DNA of 37,480 bases from IMG/VR virus record IMGVR_UViG_3300031990_000005, positions 1 to 37,480 of that record. One strand, written 5' to 3'. The notes under the pieces were generated by a model. That model saw only the letters and a program-made list of their open reading frames with translations, was not told the origin of the DNA and searched no databases. Position numbers and translations under genes: made by a program. Shown one piece after another: positions 29,799-34,572 of the stretch. This DNA is from a virus (lineage: Duplodnaviria > Caudoviricetes). Each line of letters starts with the position of its first letter. The first letter of the stretch is position 1.

Positions 29799-29962
29799 GC
29801 TGTGTACTCCTGAACCAGGAACTCTTCGGCATCGTCCGACCCTTCAGGCAGGACCCGGTAGTCGTCGCTCATGTGGGTGTAGTCGCCGGCGTCCTCGCGG
29901 AAGCACCAGGTGTCGTCGGGCCAGACGAAAATGTCGAGGTTGGATGCGGGGCGGATGTTCAC
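29795..29962 (-). CDS. Small hypothetical protein (55 aa, not in the ORF track)
   Basis: GTG start overlapping the excisionase-like stop. MNIRPASNLDIFVWPDDTWCFREDAGDYTHMSDDYRVLPEGSDDAEEFLVQEYTA; ATGA overlap with the next gene. Confidence 0.65.
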   Translation of the reverse strand: MNIRPASNLDIFVWPDDTWCFREDAGDYTHMSDDYRVLPEGSDDAEEFLVQEYTA

Positions 29963-30159
29963 GCCACCCCCAGCAGCTTGCGGATTTCAGCCACTGGCCA
30001 GGCGAGCCGACCGCCGATGTTGCGCGGGGCGATCGGGCCGGTGCTCTTGCAGGCCCACAGGCGCAGGGTCGCCGGCTGGCGGTCGAGGTAGTGGGCCGCC
30101 TGCGCGGTGCCGACGGTGACCTGATCAATTCGGTCGATGGGTGGGAAAACTGCTGCCAT
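29959..30159 (-). CDS. Excisionase/AlpA-like HTH DNA-binding protein
   Basis: From ATG at 30159 with SD AAAGGA. TAQAAHYLDRQPATLRLWAC...PRNIGGRLAWPVAEIRKLL; adjacent to the integrase remnant. Confidence 0.8.
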   Translation of the reverse strand: MAAVFPPIDRIDQVTVGTAQAAHYLDRQPATLRLWACKSTGPIAPRNIGGRLAWPVAEIRKLLGVA

Positions 30160-30241
30160 TTGCGAGATCCTTTGTGTTGTAGGTGCTCGGTAAGCACCTT
30201 TCAACACAGATCATATCGCAAATGCTCAACTGTGTGCGAAT

Positions 30242-30523
30242 TTATTTCGCAATTGCCAACATGCGTTTTTCACGGGGCTTGTGCACGATGCCTGCTTGGG
30301 CCAGCACCCAAGTCTCGATCGCATCGTGGTGGACACGCAGCAGATCCAGCGGGCGCTCGGTGTAGTGCTTCTCCGCGGTGGCGCTCGGCTTGTGGCCCAT
30401 GATCTGCGCCACCACGATCCAGTAATGCGTCTTGCCGCCACCCTTGCAGGGGTACACGTTGCCCAAGCGCACCGTGGTATCAATCGGCGGCTTAGGCGCT
30501 GGCTGCGGTAGGTTGAATTTCAT
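30242..30523 (-). pseudogene. Chimeric ORF: N-terminus of an unrelated gene fused to the C-terminal remnant of a tyrosine integrase
   Basis: Residues from about 37 onward (30415 downward), VVAQIMGHKPSATAEKHYTERPLDLLR, match the box II H...Y end of phage tyrosine integrases. No box I Arg or HxxR motif is present. Confidence 0.75.
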
Positions 30524-30540
30524 GCTGTCCTCTCGGTAAT

Positions 30541-30594
30541 GCCTAACTGTCGCTTCGAGCGGACTGAGTACAGCCGCTCAAGCTGGCGTTAGAA
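30541..30594 (+). mobile_element. Integron attC-like site 1 (54 bp)
   Basis: R'' GCCTAAC, spacer TGTCG, L'' CTTCGAGC, centre GGACTGAGTACAGCC, L' GCTCAAG, spacer CTGGC, R' GTTAGAA. Confidence 0.85.
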
Positions 30595-31053
30595 CTCTTG
30601 CGCCAGGCTGGCGTACACGTTGTCCCAGAAAATCCGGTCATCGACGCGCAGCAGAAACCCCTCGTTCATGAGGTCGCCGCCAGTGCTGACAATGTGTGCC
30701 GCGCAAGTCCAAGCCTTCGCGGTGTCGGAGTCGGCAGGCTCGCAGCGGTCCAGTTTCTCCAGCGCCAAAAGGTGTTGGCATTCGCGGGTCTTCACACCAA
30801 GACAGCAAGACAAGTGGTTGTCCTTCACCGGGACTGGCGCCTGCATGCTGCATTGCTGGTGCGTCTGTGGCAGCGCGCTCTCGCGCTCCTGGCGGAACAG
30901 CATCACCATCTGCGGCACCTCGTGGGCCATCTTCAGGCCGTCGTACATGAAGCGTGCTTCGCCCCACTCTTGACCGGCAGCGCGCTGGGTGTCTTGATGC
31001 CGATTCACAGCAGCATGCCATTCGTGGTTTAGTGGGTATTTCAATCGGTCCAT
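30589..31053 (-). CDS. Hypothetical Cys/His-rich protein (cassette 1 gene)
   Basis: 154 aa, SD GGAG. Its TAA stop coincides with the TTA of R' in attC 1. Confidence 0.75.
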   Translation of the reverse strand: MDRLKYPLNHEWHAAVNRHQDTQRAAGQEWGEARFMYDGLKMAHEVPQMVMLFRQERESALPQTHQQCSMQAPVPVKDNHLSCCLGVKTRECQHLLALEKLDRCEPADSDTAKAWTCAAHIVSTGGDLMNEGFLLRVDDRIFWDNVYASLAQEF

Positions 31054-31069
31054 GGTGTTCTCCGTTCAG

Positions 31070-31127
31070 TTCTAACTCTGCGCCCCAGCGGGACGCCTAT
31101 CGGCGCCCCTGGGCTTCGGTGTTGGGT
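31070..31127 (+). mobile_element. Integron attC-like site 2 (58 bp)
   Basis: R'' TTCTAAC, TCTGC, L'' GCCCCAGC, centre GGGACGCCTATCGGCGCC, L' CCTGGGC, TTCGGT, R' GTTGGGT. Confidence 0.82.
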
Positions 31128-31681
31128 TTCATGAATGTCACCCAGTGCGTTTTCTGCTGCTTGCCGCTCTTGTGGCCAAACAGTGGCTTGTGTGGCGTCA
31201 GCGCCAGGATGCGCGAAACCGGAATCTCGTCCTCGCACCACTTGAAGATCAACACCCCGTCAGGGCGCAGCACCCGAAAACACTCGGCGAACCCGCCGCG
31301 CAGCATTTCCTGCCAGTCGCCTTTCAGCGTGCCGTACTTCAATCCCACCCAGCCGGTGGCGCCGTTGCGCTCGAAGTGCGGCGGGTCAAACACCACCAGC
31401 GCAAGGGTGTTGTCAGGGAAAGGCAGATCCGTGAAGTCGGCCAGGTGGTCGGGGTCAATCACCAGCTCGCGGCTTCCACCCTTGCTGGAAACGTCCGGGA
31501 GAATGTGCCGCTCGCGGCGCTTGTCAACGAACGTGGCCCGCTGGTCCTTTCGGTCAAACCAAAACATCCGGCTTCCGCAGCAGGCGTCAAGCACTGGCGG
31601 GAAACCCAACTCAACGGTCAACCCGGACAATGCCCGGCGTTCACCGCTCTGGTGTTCTTCAATCGTCTGTTCGCCGGTCAT
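31097..31681 (-). CDS. SAM-dependent methyltransferase, probable amino (N6-A/N4-C) DNA methylase (cassette 2 gene)
   Basis: Motif I VLDACCGSRMFWFD, motif IV-like VVFDPPH, ECFRVLRPDGVLIFKW. Start lies in attC 3 and stop in attC 2. Confidence 0.82.
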   Translation of the reverse strand: MTGEQTIEEHQSGERRALSGLTVELGFPPVLDACCGSRMFWFDRKDQRATFVDKRRERHILPDVSSKGGSRELVIDPDHLADFTDLPFPDNTLALVVFDPPHFERNGATGWVGLKYGTLKGDWQEMLRGGFAECFRVLRPDGVLIFKWCEDEIPVSRILALTPHKPLFGHKSGKQQKTHWVTFMKPNTEAQGRR

Positions 31682-31705
31682 TTCCGGTTACCTCCTGTGT
31701 TATGT
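31604..31705 (+). mobile_element. Integron attC-like site 3 (102 bp)
   Basis: R'' ACCCAAC, TCAAC, L'' GGTCAACC, long imperfect stem, L' GGTTACC, TCCTGT, R' GTTATGT. L'' minus its extra C is the exact complement of L'. Confidence 0.82.
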
Positions 31706-31881
31706 ACCTCGACCGCAATCTCCCACGTCTCGGTAATCATTCGCTCGGCTTCCGCTTTCGTCGGCCACAATCCGCGCTCTTTCATGCTCACGTAAAACTC
31801 GTGGTGGTCATCTTTGACCCACACAAGGCCGCTGGTACAAATGCGCTTTCGCGCCGCAGGTTTCACCATCACTGCAAACAT
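31678..31881 (-). CDS. Hypothetical protein (cassette 3 gene)
   Basis: 67 aa, SD GGGAGG. Stop lies inside attC 3, with an ATGA overlap with the methyltransferase start. Confidence 0.65.
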   Translation of the reverse strand: MFAVMVKPAARKRICTSGLVWVKDDHHEFYVSMKERGLWPTKAEAERMITETWEIAVEVHNTGGNRK

Positions 31882-31882
31882 A

Positions 31883-31960
31883 TCAATCCTCCCGTTGCAT
31901 AACTGTGCTTTCGAGCGGGACGGCTTCGCCGCCCCTCAAAGCGGCGTTGTGCCTGTCCAT
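31883..31960 (-). CDS. 25-aa micro-ORF translated through attC 4
   Basis: MDRHNAALRGGEAVPLESTVMQRED. TGATG overlap with the upstream stop; ends 1 nt before the next ATG. Confidence 0.45.
   Translation of the reverse strand: MDRHNAALRGGEAVPLESTVMQRED
31897..31952 (+). mobile_element. Integron attC-like site 4 (56 bp)
   Basis: R'' GCATAAC, TGTGC, L'' TTTCGAGC, centre GGGACGGCTTCGCCGCC, L' CCTCAAA, GCGGC, R' GTTGTGC. Confidence 0.82.
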
Positions 31961-32172
31961 CACCGCTGCCCTCCAATCTCGGCCGCACGCATGGCCCGCA
32001 AGTGGTCGGCGCCGCAATAGGCATCGCAGTAGCGCACCCCAGGCGGGGTTGGTTCGCCGCATGAGAAACACTGGCCGTTAGCCGGTGGCAATTCAGGCTT
32101 TCGGCTGGCCGCCAGCCGGGCGGGGGCTTCGAGCTCGTCGCGATCGGCTGTCATGTCTGCTTCGTCAGCCAT
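31960..32172 (-). CDS. TraR/DksA-like C4 zinc-finger protein
   Basis: 70 aa. N-terminal ADEAD acidic motif; CFSC...CDAYC. Confidence 0.7.
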   Translation of the reverse strand: MADEADMTADRDELEAPARLAASRKPELPPANGQCFSCGEPTPPGVRYCDAYCGADHLRAMRAAEIGGQR

Positions 32173-32175
32173 CGG

Positions 32176-32451
32176 TCAGATCCCCACACCACTGTTGATC
32201 GCCGACCGCACGGCGTCACGCACCGTATCTGCAGGGGTACCTACCACAGCGTGTGCTGCATCGGTCACCGCCCACTCGCCAGTCTCAAGGTGCTGGACGG
32301 AGTAGCCTGCCTGGTCGAGGAAATCGAGCAGGATGTCGTCATCCGTCGGGCGTTCGTAGGGCACGCCGTTGTTGGTGAGCAGCCACCAGGCCGACAGGAT
32401 GAAAAACGCAATGAGCAACAGCCACGTTGCGATCGGCAGGTAGGTGTTCAT
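32176..32451 (-). CDS. Hypothetical membrane-anchored protein
   Basis: From ATG at 32451 with SD GGAGG/AAGGG; N-terminal TM segment (IATWLLLIAFFILSAWWLL). Confidence 0.6.
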   Translation of the reverse strand: MNTYLPIATWLLLIAFFILSAWWLLTNNGVPYERPTDDDILLDFLDQAGYSVQHLETGEWAVTDAAHAVVGTPADTVRDAVRSAINSGVGI

Positions 32452-33047
32452 GCGGCACCGCCCTTCTGTGCACGGGTGTGGGCTGCCGTCCGCGCACCGT
32501 AGTGCGCCACCTTGTCGGCGTCGTAGACGGGGTTGCCGCCGGCCTTCGCCCGCCCTTGCCGGGCCGCAGCCAGGCGCCACAGGGCCTTGAACGCTTCACC
32601 CTCGTTGAAGGTCATGTTCAGCGCTTCGATGATGTCGGCGCACTCAGCCAGGTAGGGTGCACTCTCGGGATCCACAGGCCGCACGATGTCGACCTGGTAG
32701 TAGTTGGCCTTGCGCTCCAGCTTGCCGCCGCCGCTCGCCACAACTGCCTGCGTGTCGTGAGATTCCTGGATCGCGACTTGCGTGGTTTCGTTCGGGGTGA
32801 TGCCGTTGGGCGCCCGTAGCACCAACTCAACCAGGTCACCCCCGCAACGCCGGCAGGGCTCGCCGGGTGGCAGCGCGTAGCCGTTTTGATTGACCGAATA
32901 GGTGCGGCCGTCCCCCACCTTTAGCACGTTGACCAGATACTTCGGGTCTTCGTCGATGCTGTGCACCGTGACGTGCACCGTGACGTGCACCCCGCTGCGT
33001 GTCCGCCACACCTGGCCGACCTCGATCTTGATTCCGTTCACCGCCAT
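32448..33047 (-). CDS. Hypothetical two-domain phage protein
   Basis: 199 aa, SD CAGGAG. IEVGQVWRTRSG N-terminal domain; C-terminal PYLAECADIIEALNMTFNEGEAFKALWR domain. Confidence 0.7.
   Translation of the reverse strand: MAVNGIKIEVGQVWRTRSGVHVTVHVTVHSIDEDPKYLVNVLKVGDGRTYSVNQNGYALPPGEPCRRCGGDLVELVLRAPNGITPNETTQVAIQESHDTQAVVASGGGKLERKANYYQVDIVRPVDPESAPYLAECADIIEALNMTFNEGEAFKALWRLAAARQGRAKAGGNPVYDADKVAHYGARTAAHTRAQKGGAA
32961..32991. repeat. 12-bp tandem repeat (GTGCACCGTGAC, about 2.5 copies)
   Basis: Directly visible; in frame, encodes VHVTVHVTVH. Confidence 0.85.
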
Positions 33048-33078
33048 CTGATAACTCCTGTTGCGTTTGCGATTGTTT

Positions 33079-33106
33079 ATTTTCGCAAATGCGAACAGAA
33101 AGTCAA
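33079..33106 (-). promoter_or_regulatory. Leftward sigma70-like promoter with an operator palindrome in the spacer
   Basis: Minus strand TTGACT-N16-GAAAAT; palindrome TTCGCA-AA-TGCGAA at 33082-33095; upstream of the accessory operon. Confidence 0.65.
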
Positions 33107-34572
33107 GCAGTTTCTTTCAACCCTTCGATCAGCGCGTCTTGGATCGAGACCTTCGTCGTCAGCCGCTTGACCGCTGACTCTTCGACCGTGCCACGGGCGA
33201 TGATGCGGTGGACTTTCACCACGCGGTCGAAGCCTGCCTGCATCTGGCGTGTCGGGCCGACGCGCTCGATCAACTGAGCATCTTCCTCTGCAAACCAGTT
33301 GGTCGAAAAAATACAGGCGATGCAGCTGTGATACTGCAAGCCGTCAACGCCGTGCCCGATGCTCAGCGGGTGGGCCAGCCACACCAGCCCCTCGCCGCGT
33401 TTAGCAGCCTCCAAGTCGGCGTCTTTACTCAGGTCGAGCGCATCCTTACCGAACACTTTCTTGATCCGCTCCGCGTCGGGCTTGAACCAGTTGGCGACGA
33501 GCACGGGCATGCCGGCGGCCTCTTCGATGACGGACTTCAGCGCCTCGATTTTCTCGTCGTGCGCAAGCACCCATTCTTTCTCGTTTCCGGTGTAGACCGA
33601 CCCGCTGGCGATCTGCAGCAGCTTCTGGCTCTTGGCGCCGGCGGCCAGGGCCTCGATGGTCGTGCCCTGGATCTCGGTCAGCAGGTCGCGGGCCATCTCT
33701 TTGTACTGGCGCATCGCCGCCGGCGGTAGATCGACGTAGATGGGGTTCTGAAAAGGCTCGCGGATGTCGATGTAGTCCTTCAGGTCCACGACCACGGTCA
33801 CATCGCGGATGGCATTCATGATCTGCTCTTGCGCGTAGGGCAGCGGCTCGATCATCTGGCGCGTAGCATCGCTGCCTGGCTTGGCGTAGAACCAGCGCTT
33901 CGAGAAACTGTCGAACGAGTTGCCGAGGCGGTGACCGGTGTCTACGAACCAAGTCTGCCCCCACGCCGCCTCAAGGCCCGACAGCACGAACGTGCCGGTC
34001 AGGTTGACCCATCGGTCCACCCGTGTGTGCGCCACTCGCGCCAAGGCTCGCGCACGACTGGCACCGCTGCCTTTTTTCTTTTTGGCCGTTCCGTCCTCGT
34101 CCACTTTGCCGGCGCCCCGCAGGAATTTTTTGCCGGTCTTGCTGGTTCCGATCGACACCCGCAGGCCGCGCAGCCGCGTACTCTCGTCCACCACCACCAT
34201 GTCGAACGGCCAGTCGGGACCATAGTTGTCGACCAGCCACTCCAGGTTCTCGAAGTTGATCGTGACGATGAACGTCGCGCTGCGGATGGCCGCGTGGCGA
34301 TCGTTTTCGTCACCGATGGCCGTCGCCATGGTCAGGTGACCGAACGATCCACGGAACTTGTGCAGGGTCTCGGGCCAGGTGTACTGCGCCACGCGCTTGG
34401 GGGCGATGATCAGCACCCGTCGGACCTCACCAAACAGGTGAAGAATCGACAGGGCCTCCAAGGTCCCTGCGGTCTTGCCGGACCCCATCCCGGCCAGGAC
34501 GTTGACACGCTTGTTCGTCCTGATGCCGTTGGTGATCGGGGGCTGCCACGGGCGCGGCGTGTACCGACTCAT
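33103..34572 (-). CDS. SNF2-family (SF2) helicase
   Basis: AGMGSGKT, IIAPKRVA, VVVDEST, NLTGT, GHGVDGLQ, QLIERVGPTRQ motifs. Confidence 0.92.
   Translation of the reverse strand: MSRYTPRPWQPPITNGIRTNKRVNVLAGMGSGKTAGTLEALSILHLFGEVRRVLIIAPKRVAQYTWPETLHKFRGSFGHLTMATAIGDENDRHAAIRSATFIVTINFENLEWLVDNYGPDWPFDMVVVDESTRLRGLRVSIGTSKTGKKFLRGAGKVDEDGTAKKKKGSGASRARALARVAHTRVDRWVNLTGTFVLSGLEAAWGQTWFVDTGHRLGNSFDSFSKRWFYAKPGSDATRQMIEPLPYAQEQIMNAIRDVTVVVDLKDYIDIREPFQNPIYVDLPPAAMRQYKEMARDLLTEIQGTTIEALAAGAKSQKLLQIASGSVYTGNEKEWVLAHDEKIEALKSVIEEAAGMPVLVANWFKPDAERIKKVFGKDALDLSKDADLEAAKRGEGLVWLAHPLSIGHGVDGLQYHSCIACIFSTNWFAEEDAQLIERVGPTRQMQAGFDRVVKVHRIIARGTVEESAVKRLTTKVSIQDALIEGLKETA

Follow-up and report, generated by a model that had tools for sequence, protein, structure and literature searches.

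A probable back-to-front array of integron-type cassettes in a phage genome, with an attC site that may couple a methyltransferase gene to its upstream neighbour

The CALIN rule asks for at least two same-strand attC sites within 4 kb (available sections of PMC4889954), and the accessible text of Qi et al. (2023, PMC9892861) describes phage CALINs which, like the locus presented here, are intI-less clusters of phage attC sites with a methyltransferase; the methyltransferase of ctTUS972 (their Table S4) belongs to the same family as the one studied here. According to the same parts of that paper, phage attC sites (other than those analysed below) recombine with IntI1. The accessible text of PMC2727003 places an extra-helical G in the R''-L'' arm of the attC bottom strand and the cut between the A and C of R', and the supplement of PMC9892861 depicts the bottom strand of aadA7 with the same anatomy. 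Translation through recombination sites is also on record, in the available text of each source: coupling by ORF-11 of attI1 and short ORFs in attC sites are reviewed in PMC8876359, a fusion through attC is reported for gcuF1-blaOXA-28 (PMC3375312), and attC sites are given as only minor causes of polarity (PMC11511950).

We analysed a linear virus contig of 37,480 nt with an estimated completeness of 74%, the whole of which is referred to here as the window. Terminase, lambda-type portal, capsid and tape-measure genes are located on its + strand, DNA polymerase, exonuclease, dUTPase and helicase genes on its - strand, and the cassette array lies within the - strand small-gene region, past a DksA/TraR-like gene which is the final resident phage gene ahead of the array. 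The features of the array and its flank are, in the order of transcription on the - strand:

31960..32172, - strand: DksA/TraR-like zinc-finger gene (PHROG 54, E 2e-8)
31883..31960, - strand: micro-ORF of 25 codons (SD pairing -9.8 kcal/mol)
31897..31952, 56 bp, top strand is +: attC4, crossover 31947/31946, predicted leader of the 67-aa cassette
31678..31881, - strand: 67-aa gene with its own SD (-10.0 kcal/mol), no Pfam or PHROG match, homologues in loci L046 and L047
31604..31705, 102 bp, top strand is +: attC3, crossover 31700/31699, with the SD, predicted start and codons 1-26 of the methyltransferase gene
31097..31681, - strand: SAM-dependent methyltransferase gene, 194 aa, PHROG 954 (annotated DNA methyltransferase)
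31070..31127, 58 bp, top strand is +: attC2, crossover 31122/31121, with the methyltransferase TAG and no start of the downstream gene
30589..31053, - strand: 154-aa gene with its own SD-like GGAGA, stopping at the TAA/C of attC1 (slash, crossover), with 21 related viral loci
30541..30594, 54 bp, top strand is +: attC1, crossover 30589/30588, crossed by no annotated ORF
30242..30523, - strand: 93-aa chimeric ORF of 36 residues from a last cassette gene and 57 integrase C-terminal residues
29959-30162: excisionase-like gene, adjoining the integrase remnant

The four same-strand attC sites occupy 1.4 kb without a neighbouring intI, which makes the region a CALIN and not a complete integron; no family match to IntI (TIGR02249) or tyrosine recombinases (PF00589) was found anywhere in the 37.5 kb of this 74% complete contig. 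The integrase tail in the 93-aa ORF is of the phage type, with 52/57 of its residues (37-93) identical to residues 362-418 of P0001, the C-terminus of a phage tyrosine integrase. Other contigs diverge from the window at 30412-30416, and a deletion near 30415 likely removed the far end of the array together with most of the integrase, an assembly join being a conceivable alternative origin of the chimera. A 23 nt inverted repeat at 30157-30224, between the integrase tail and the excisionase-like gene, is possibly part of an attP or an operator. As candidate promoter for array transcription, a single sigma-70-like site was present in 29900-33300 (0.5 expected), at 33106-33079 on the - strand, between the helicase gene and a 199-aa gene, whereas an intrinsic terminator near the array was unsupported (1 site vs 3.4 expected). 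The 199-aa gene itself contains a tandem 12 nt duplication (32965-32998) encoding VHVTVHVTVH. None of the data sets listed as containing the region is RNA, run X2 being marked as probably DNA.

The attC sites were called using a purpose-written structural detector, which also reports the arm of the extra base. In 4/4 sites the R boxes (AAC/GTT) flank complementary L boxes (6-7 of 7 positions paired) at spacers of about 5 nt, and in 4/4 an extra-helical G is present on the window - strand, in the R''-L'' arm of the bottom strand. This position of the extra-helical base identifies the window + strand as the canonical top strand, and at all four sites the genes are on the recombining bottom strand; each attC is therefore the 5' leader of the gene after it. 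The TAA of the 154-aa gene (30591-30589) is located in the R' box of attC1, which the first-pass annotation had named correctly, with + as the canonical top strand. The classical cassette layout, a top-strand ORF followed by its attC, is absent: the array ORFs are on the bottom strand and overrun the sites, with the methyltransferase gene running from attC3 into attC2 and the 67-aa gene ending inside attC3. Classical polarity, in which the methyltransferase would be a start-less cassette borrowing its neighbour's attC, was rejected by the extra-helical base test.

When the loci L001-L086 were read on the strand of the query gene, 153/171 sites were bottom-strand, compared with 6/105 (99/105 being top-strand) in integrase-linked controls read away from intI, which comprised 40 regions beside intI genes (some too short for a site) and a Vibrio phage array. 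Shuffled DNA from 40 loci gave 19 sites, split 8 vs 11 by strand. A site was detected in 81 of 123 viral loci found by DNA pattern alone, and the 189 G/C-bulge sites in these pattern-found loci were assigned as 172 reversed, 13 classical and 4 ambiguous, by an amino-acid-composition caller which also called 13/84 control sites reversed; as the search pattern was derived from reversed sites, these loci form a biased census. Searching plasmids by blastn with attC1 or attC4-attC3 as query returned no useful hits. Taken jointly with the proposed coupling at attC3 discussed below, the region is probably an integrase-less array of integron-type cassettes, placed back to front.

It had been proposed that attC3 supplies the translation signals of the methyltransferase gene, and each of these elements was recovered: an SD (ACAGGAGG, 31698-31691 on the - strand) is located 9 nt ahead of the ATG, this ATG (31681-31679) lies on the TGA of the 67-aa gene (31680-31678) in an ATGA overlap, the first 26 codons (MTGEQ...VELG) are encoded by attC3, and the TAG (31099-31097) falls inside attC2 (31070-31127), preceded there by the last 8 methyltransferase residues. 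The 67-aa gene in turn has its final 7 residues (from AAC) and its stop in attC3. The match to PHROG 954 (E 5e-68) covers residues 28-190. Six in-frame starts are available within the first 42 codons, and ATG 31681 inside attC3 has both the best SD pairing (-11.3 vs -2.5 to -3.5 kcal/mol at the other five) and the lowest opening energy (8.8 vs 14.6-23.1 kcal/mol). TTG 31630, 31621 and 31609, GTG 31594 and ATG 31567 were rejected on these two measures, ATG 31567 additionally being located beyond the DACCG motif. The role of attC3 as the translation start module of the methyltransferase gene, with ATG 31681 as predicted start, is thus supported.

Folded by itself, attC3 has its SD and AUG base-paired, but in context their opening energy is ordinary; no special burial of the methyltransferase start was seen relative to the start of the 67-aa gene (8.8 vs 8.6 kcal/mol). 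As this start is not specially buried and the SD is strong, the methyltransferase could initiate without coupling, and a need for coupling is drawn from the frame statistics given below, not from structure. In the predicted protein model, pLDDT was <50 for residues 1-24 (the alignment rows used for the model left out residues 1-26, which itself lowers confidence there), the first strand spans residues 30-34 and the core starts at about residue 28, so that residues 1-24 are predicted to be unstructured. The model resembles the fold of SAM-dependent methyltransferases. Qi et al. list a methyltransferase (ctTUS972; locus L092, MW202573, 2600-3186) whose annotated start is an internal Met and from which the DACCG motif is missing; by eye, the DACCG frame of this locus extends into an attC-like hairpin with AAGGAG and TTG, just after an AAC-frame TGA.

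The relation between genes and sites was examined at 226 phage sites from loci other than the window, all of them bottom-strand sites whose bulge is G or C and which lie no closer than 150 nt and 200 nt to the locus ends, with near-duplicates removed and, among the pattern-found loci, limited to sites called reversed; the controls consisted of 73-74 sites, with the Vibrio array left out. In 74 cases the upstream gene read into the site in the AAC frame, in 62 it terminated at TAA/C and in 7 it used another frame (83 ambiguous), vs 10, 17 and 13 (33 ambiguous) at 73 controls. The sequences and their comparison thus show a family-wide rule: an upstream gene either terminates at TAA/C or reads AAC as a codon on entering the site. 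In 75/226 phage sites, vs 3/74 and 2/73 in the control readings, an internal ATG opens an ORF that continues for 120 nt or more beyond the site, although some of these 75 starts are due to chance, because the non-coding strand of the same 226 sites gives a long ORF from an internal ATG in 30. Among the 75 sites, an ATGA overlap with the first stop occurred in the AAC frame 31 times and in the other frames 6 and 2 times (binomial p 4e-9), and counted by locus (96 loci) it occurred in 23 vs 6 and 2. These ATGA sites were found in both subsets (14/108 and 17/118), their loops are unrelated (similarity above 0.7 in 2/465 pairs), and the present upstream gene enters 16 of them in the AAC frame and stops at TAA/C in 8, with 7 ambiguous. 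An SD-like motif was found in 15/31 ATGA sites and was absent from 16, and leader sites were longer (median 101 vs 64 bp). By these counts, the coupler layout of attC3 is beyond chance and general across related phages, while translational coupling itself at attC3 is something we infer.

The account we favour, and consider probable, is that of a reversed array in which the attC3 start overlaps the upstream stop and translation of the methyltransferase is coupled to that of the preceding gene. With its ribosome binding site, start, 26 codons and a stop for the upstream frame, attC3 would likely couple the methyltransferase to whichever gene precedes it. A host or helper IntI would move the cassettes, the ATG in attC3 would be the start in use, and ribosomes terminating on the upstream gene would reinitiate there. 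Selection may maintain the frame rule, so that reshuffled cassettes would still be expressed within the tightly packed early operon. It is the long attC sites alone that tend to act as such coupling leaders; attC2 and attC1 are followed by genes with starts of their own.

Alternatively, the attC-borne start may be real and work alone, with the ATGA overlap having little effect on expression, either as a relic of a captured phage stop/start junction or as a tidy end for stop-less neighbours. The strong SD and ordinary opening energy at ATG 31681 fit this possibility, as do the predicted lack of structure in residues 1-24, the different leaders among homologues, and the description of attC as a minor polarity determinant in class 1 arrays in the accessible text of PMC11511950. 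A relic, however, leaves unexplained why stops are biased to the AAC frame (31 vs 6 and 2) across unrelated loops, and why upstream genes avoid the other frames (74 vs 7), and the 16/31 ATGA sites lacking an SD-like motif would have little else to start from; we regard an independent start as unlikely.

A broader claim of the first-pass annotation was that translation signals in the attC sites form a coupling relay through the whole array, and of this the coupler layout at attC3 stood but the extension to every site did not. End-to-end translation is seen at 2/4 sites only, attC4 and attC3, whereas translation leaves a gap of 43 nt behind the stop in attC2 and one of 65 nt behind that at attC1, and the genes downstream of these two sites have SD-like motifs of their own. 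The micro-ORF is as had been noted: its ATG overlaps the stop of the DksA/TraR-like gene as TGATG, and it traverses attC4 and ends 1 nt before ATG 31881. After its first 14 nt it follows the AAC frame through attC4 and the 67-aa cassette leader. As a general device, micro-ORF relays fell away, since they were detected at 4/129 sites vs 3/54 controls. These 129 sites have a gene start after the site, with an SD-like motif in 84, and the AAC-frame stop was not nearer to the downstream start than the stops of the other frames (13, 12 and 9 of 129 sites). Of the shuffles of the 72 nt core of the micro-ORF, 46% were also open, and because of this and of the missing enrichment of relays the micro-ORF is not beyond chance.

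The origin of the micro-ORF may be visible in one contig of run X9, which agrees with the window through the DksA/TraR-like gene and the beginning of the micro-ORF as far as 31947, precisely at AA/C, and there leaves it. Its remaining 152 nt begin unlike an attC, 30 letters read by eye contain no stop in the micro-ORF frame, and the base beside the crossover is a C, not the G of GWT. Judged from this one contig, the next resident gene likely received the first cassette at a point five codons in, with the micro-ORF as a stub and its first 14 nt as the likely start of the interrupted gene. The DksA/TraR-like relatives in L258-L260 (44-51% identity) were too distant to show an empty allele. The micro-ORF is likely translated, and it may aid the 67-aa gene, which has its own SD. 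A continuous, polarity-preventing ribosome relay, with signals at every attC and a selected micro-ORF, would agree with the good SD of the micro-ORF (-9.8 kcal/mol), with the end-to-end crossing of attC4 and attC3, with the AAC-frame stop of attC4 1 nt before the next ATG, and with short ORFs in attC reportedly raising downstream translation (available text of the review PMC8876359). It is nevertheless improbable given the untranslated 43 and 65 nt, the unenriched micro-ORF relays and the lack of closeness of AAC-frame stops, the presence of the micro-ORF start in a relative without attC4 (X9), and the same frame stopping ahead of the SD in L046.

The borders of the cassettes were compared with those in other contigs. 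R''/R' pairing across the three array genes is 6/7, 7/7 and 7/7. In L046, which has an 89% homologue of the 67-aa gene, the alignment spans the right arm of attC4 up to CATAAC and ends there. Up to 31701, contigs of runs X8 and X17 (studies P4 and P10) show 0 and 1 differences from attC3, beyond which they continue in unrelated DNA; a contig of run X6 stops at 31702, and the X8 and X6 contigs run on into the methyltransferase gene with 1 difference each. These comparisons place the cassette borders at AA/C and show that attC3 stays with the methyltransferase gene. Among 286 sites, pairs alike on both sides shared their site in 13/13 cases and random pairs in 14/2000, whereas pairs alike only upstream had the site in common in 1/42 (41/42 change site) and pairs alike only downstream in 7/24, with the qualification that the pairs are mutually non-independent, as are the sites of one lineage. 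The 17/24 downstream-only pairs with a differing site, which include attC3 of the window compared with L005 and L044, show that attC leaders get replaced over longer times. That the hairpins are RNA elements or chance inverted repeats, and the overlaps ordinary phage gene packing, is very improbable: the contig (74% complete) has no IntI or tyrosine recombinase family match and stop/start overlaps are common in the operon (such as TGATG at 31960), but this leaves unaccounted for that R and L boxes are present with their extra-helical base, that R boxes pair across genes and that neighbours switch at AA/C; in addition, an Rfam scan of the window gave 0 matches, and other phage attC sites recombine with IntI1 in the accessible part of PMC9892861.

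Two loci contain array genes in other surroundings. In L046 (2950-3200), the 67-aa cassette is alone in AT-rich DNA, without an attC after CATAA/C, and its attC4-like site is shortened and apparently rearranged. L048 (2880-3550) contains a 90% homologue of the 154-aa gene that, as judged by eye, is flanked by no attC upstream or downstream. It nevertheless terminates in TTCTAAC, after which come an SD and the next gene, an arrangement like that of a pre-cassette or domesticated copy.

Because the cassettes are reversed, a point that accounts for the anatomy and is missing from the first-pass annotation of these signals, the N-terminus of a protein travels with its own attC, and the C-terminus alone is set by the neighbour. 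We searched 63 loci with methyltransferase homologues, of which 7 lacked the motif and 3 were duplicates, leaving 53 scored (window included). Upstream of these, 13 have a detected attC and 38 have none, the remaining 2 being truncated; the ATG was present only inside the site in 8 of the 13 and after the site in 5. Downstream, 13 entered a site in the AAC frame, 4 stopped at TAA/C, 1 used another frame, 34 had no site and 1 was incomplete. The tails of the homologues diverge right after the core, past AAC, and the window's own sites would yield C-terminal tails of 7, 8, 15 or 21 residues, which supports the expectation that cassette order would change C-termini. At the N-terminus, the 5/13 homologues that start after their upstream attC likewise mark the leader as replaceable. 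L035, L069 and L076 lack a detected upstream attC yet have attC-like leader peptides ending in GSASV or GSAFPPV, which suggest eroded sites.

In the usual model a cassette is a gene-then-attC unit, in which attC is a passive or inhibitory spacer. The sites described here would constitute a large phage-borne class of opposite polarity, in which the site doubles as ribosome binding site, N-terminus and terminator for the neighbour, and this shifts where cassette borders and protein ends get drawn; gene callers already truncate such proteins, as in ctTUS972. We further propose, with slightly less than even confidence, that phages maintain their own pool of reversed integron cassettes, in which a shared junction grammar makes any cassette plug in coupled. 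Genes in such a pool would end in TAA/C or carry on into the next site by reading AAC as a codon, long attC loops would set an AAC-frame stop atop their own start, and shuffling would swap C-termini. Homologues that have an attC and others that lack one suggest that ordinary phage genes, captured at AA/C points, give rise to such cassettes; the old question of where cassettes come from could then be tested directly.

Compared with known systems, phage CALINs and ORFs in attC are already published. No published description of reversed, frame-locked phage cassettes with attC-borne starts was found in a search that covered subscription journals thinly, and the accessible texts of PMC4889954, PMC8352920 and PMC7923331 do not mention a reversed design. 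Bottom-strand genes and starts inside attC, present here, are likewise not described for the phage CALINs in the accessible text of PMC9892861, although the sole detected site of ctTUS972 is reversed; the three sites of TJE1 are classical according to the structural detector, unlike those of the window. Classical integron cassettes (class 1 and sedentary chromosomal) differ in that here the gene is on the bottom strand and the attC leads, and genes here are often without a stop, and sometimes without a start, that belongs to them. Internal starts on the coding strand also separate the two groups (2/73 classical control sites vs 75/226 phage sites). In the classical Vibrio phage array of L093 (MK672802, 28334-41115), 3/18 annotated ORFs are on the opposite strand, including a methyltransferase and a transposase.

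Insertion at attG off-target sites (bioRxiv 10.1101/2022.09.11.507474, available text) offers a route by which cassettes enter at GWT and can disrupt a gene, but it was demonstrated in E. coli with classical cassettes, and the C of the X9 allele leaves a GWT target unconfirmed. ORF-11, -17 and -18 of attI1 and short ORFs in attC, credited to Hanau-Bercot 2002 and Jacquier 2009 as cited in PMC8876359 and PMC11511950, and gcuF1-blaOXA-28 resemble the phage sites, as far as the accessible sources go, in that translation through a recombination site helps or alters the product of the next cassette, through termination and reinitiation or through fusion. Those cases, which PMC11511950 in its available text calls "anecdotal", keep the classical polarity and amount to short helper ORFs or isolated fusions, whereas the phage sites would encode the N-terminus of their own gene and have the stop locked to one frame in many unrelated sites. 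The closest parallel in design is the synthetic coding attC of Nivina et al. (2020, PMC7439510, accessible text), where likewise one sequence is both recombination hairpin and unstructured peptide; those attC sites are engineered linkers, while the phage ones are natural, are located at protein ends and carry start signals. The reversed phage sites may thus represent a natural counterpart of engineered coding attC sites, and provide testable cases of cassettes arising from ordinary genes.
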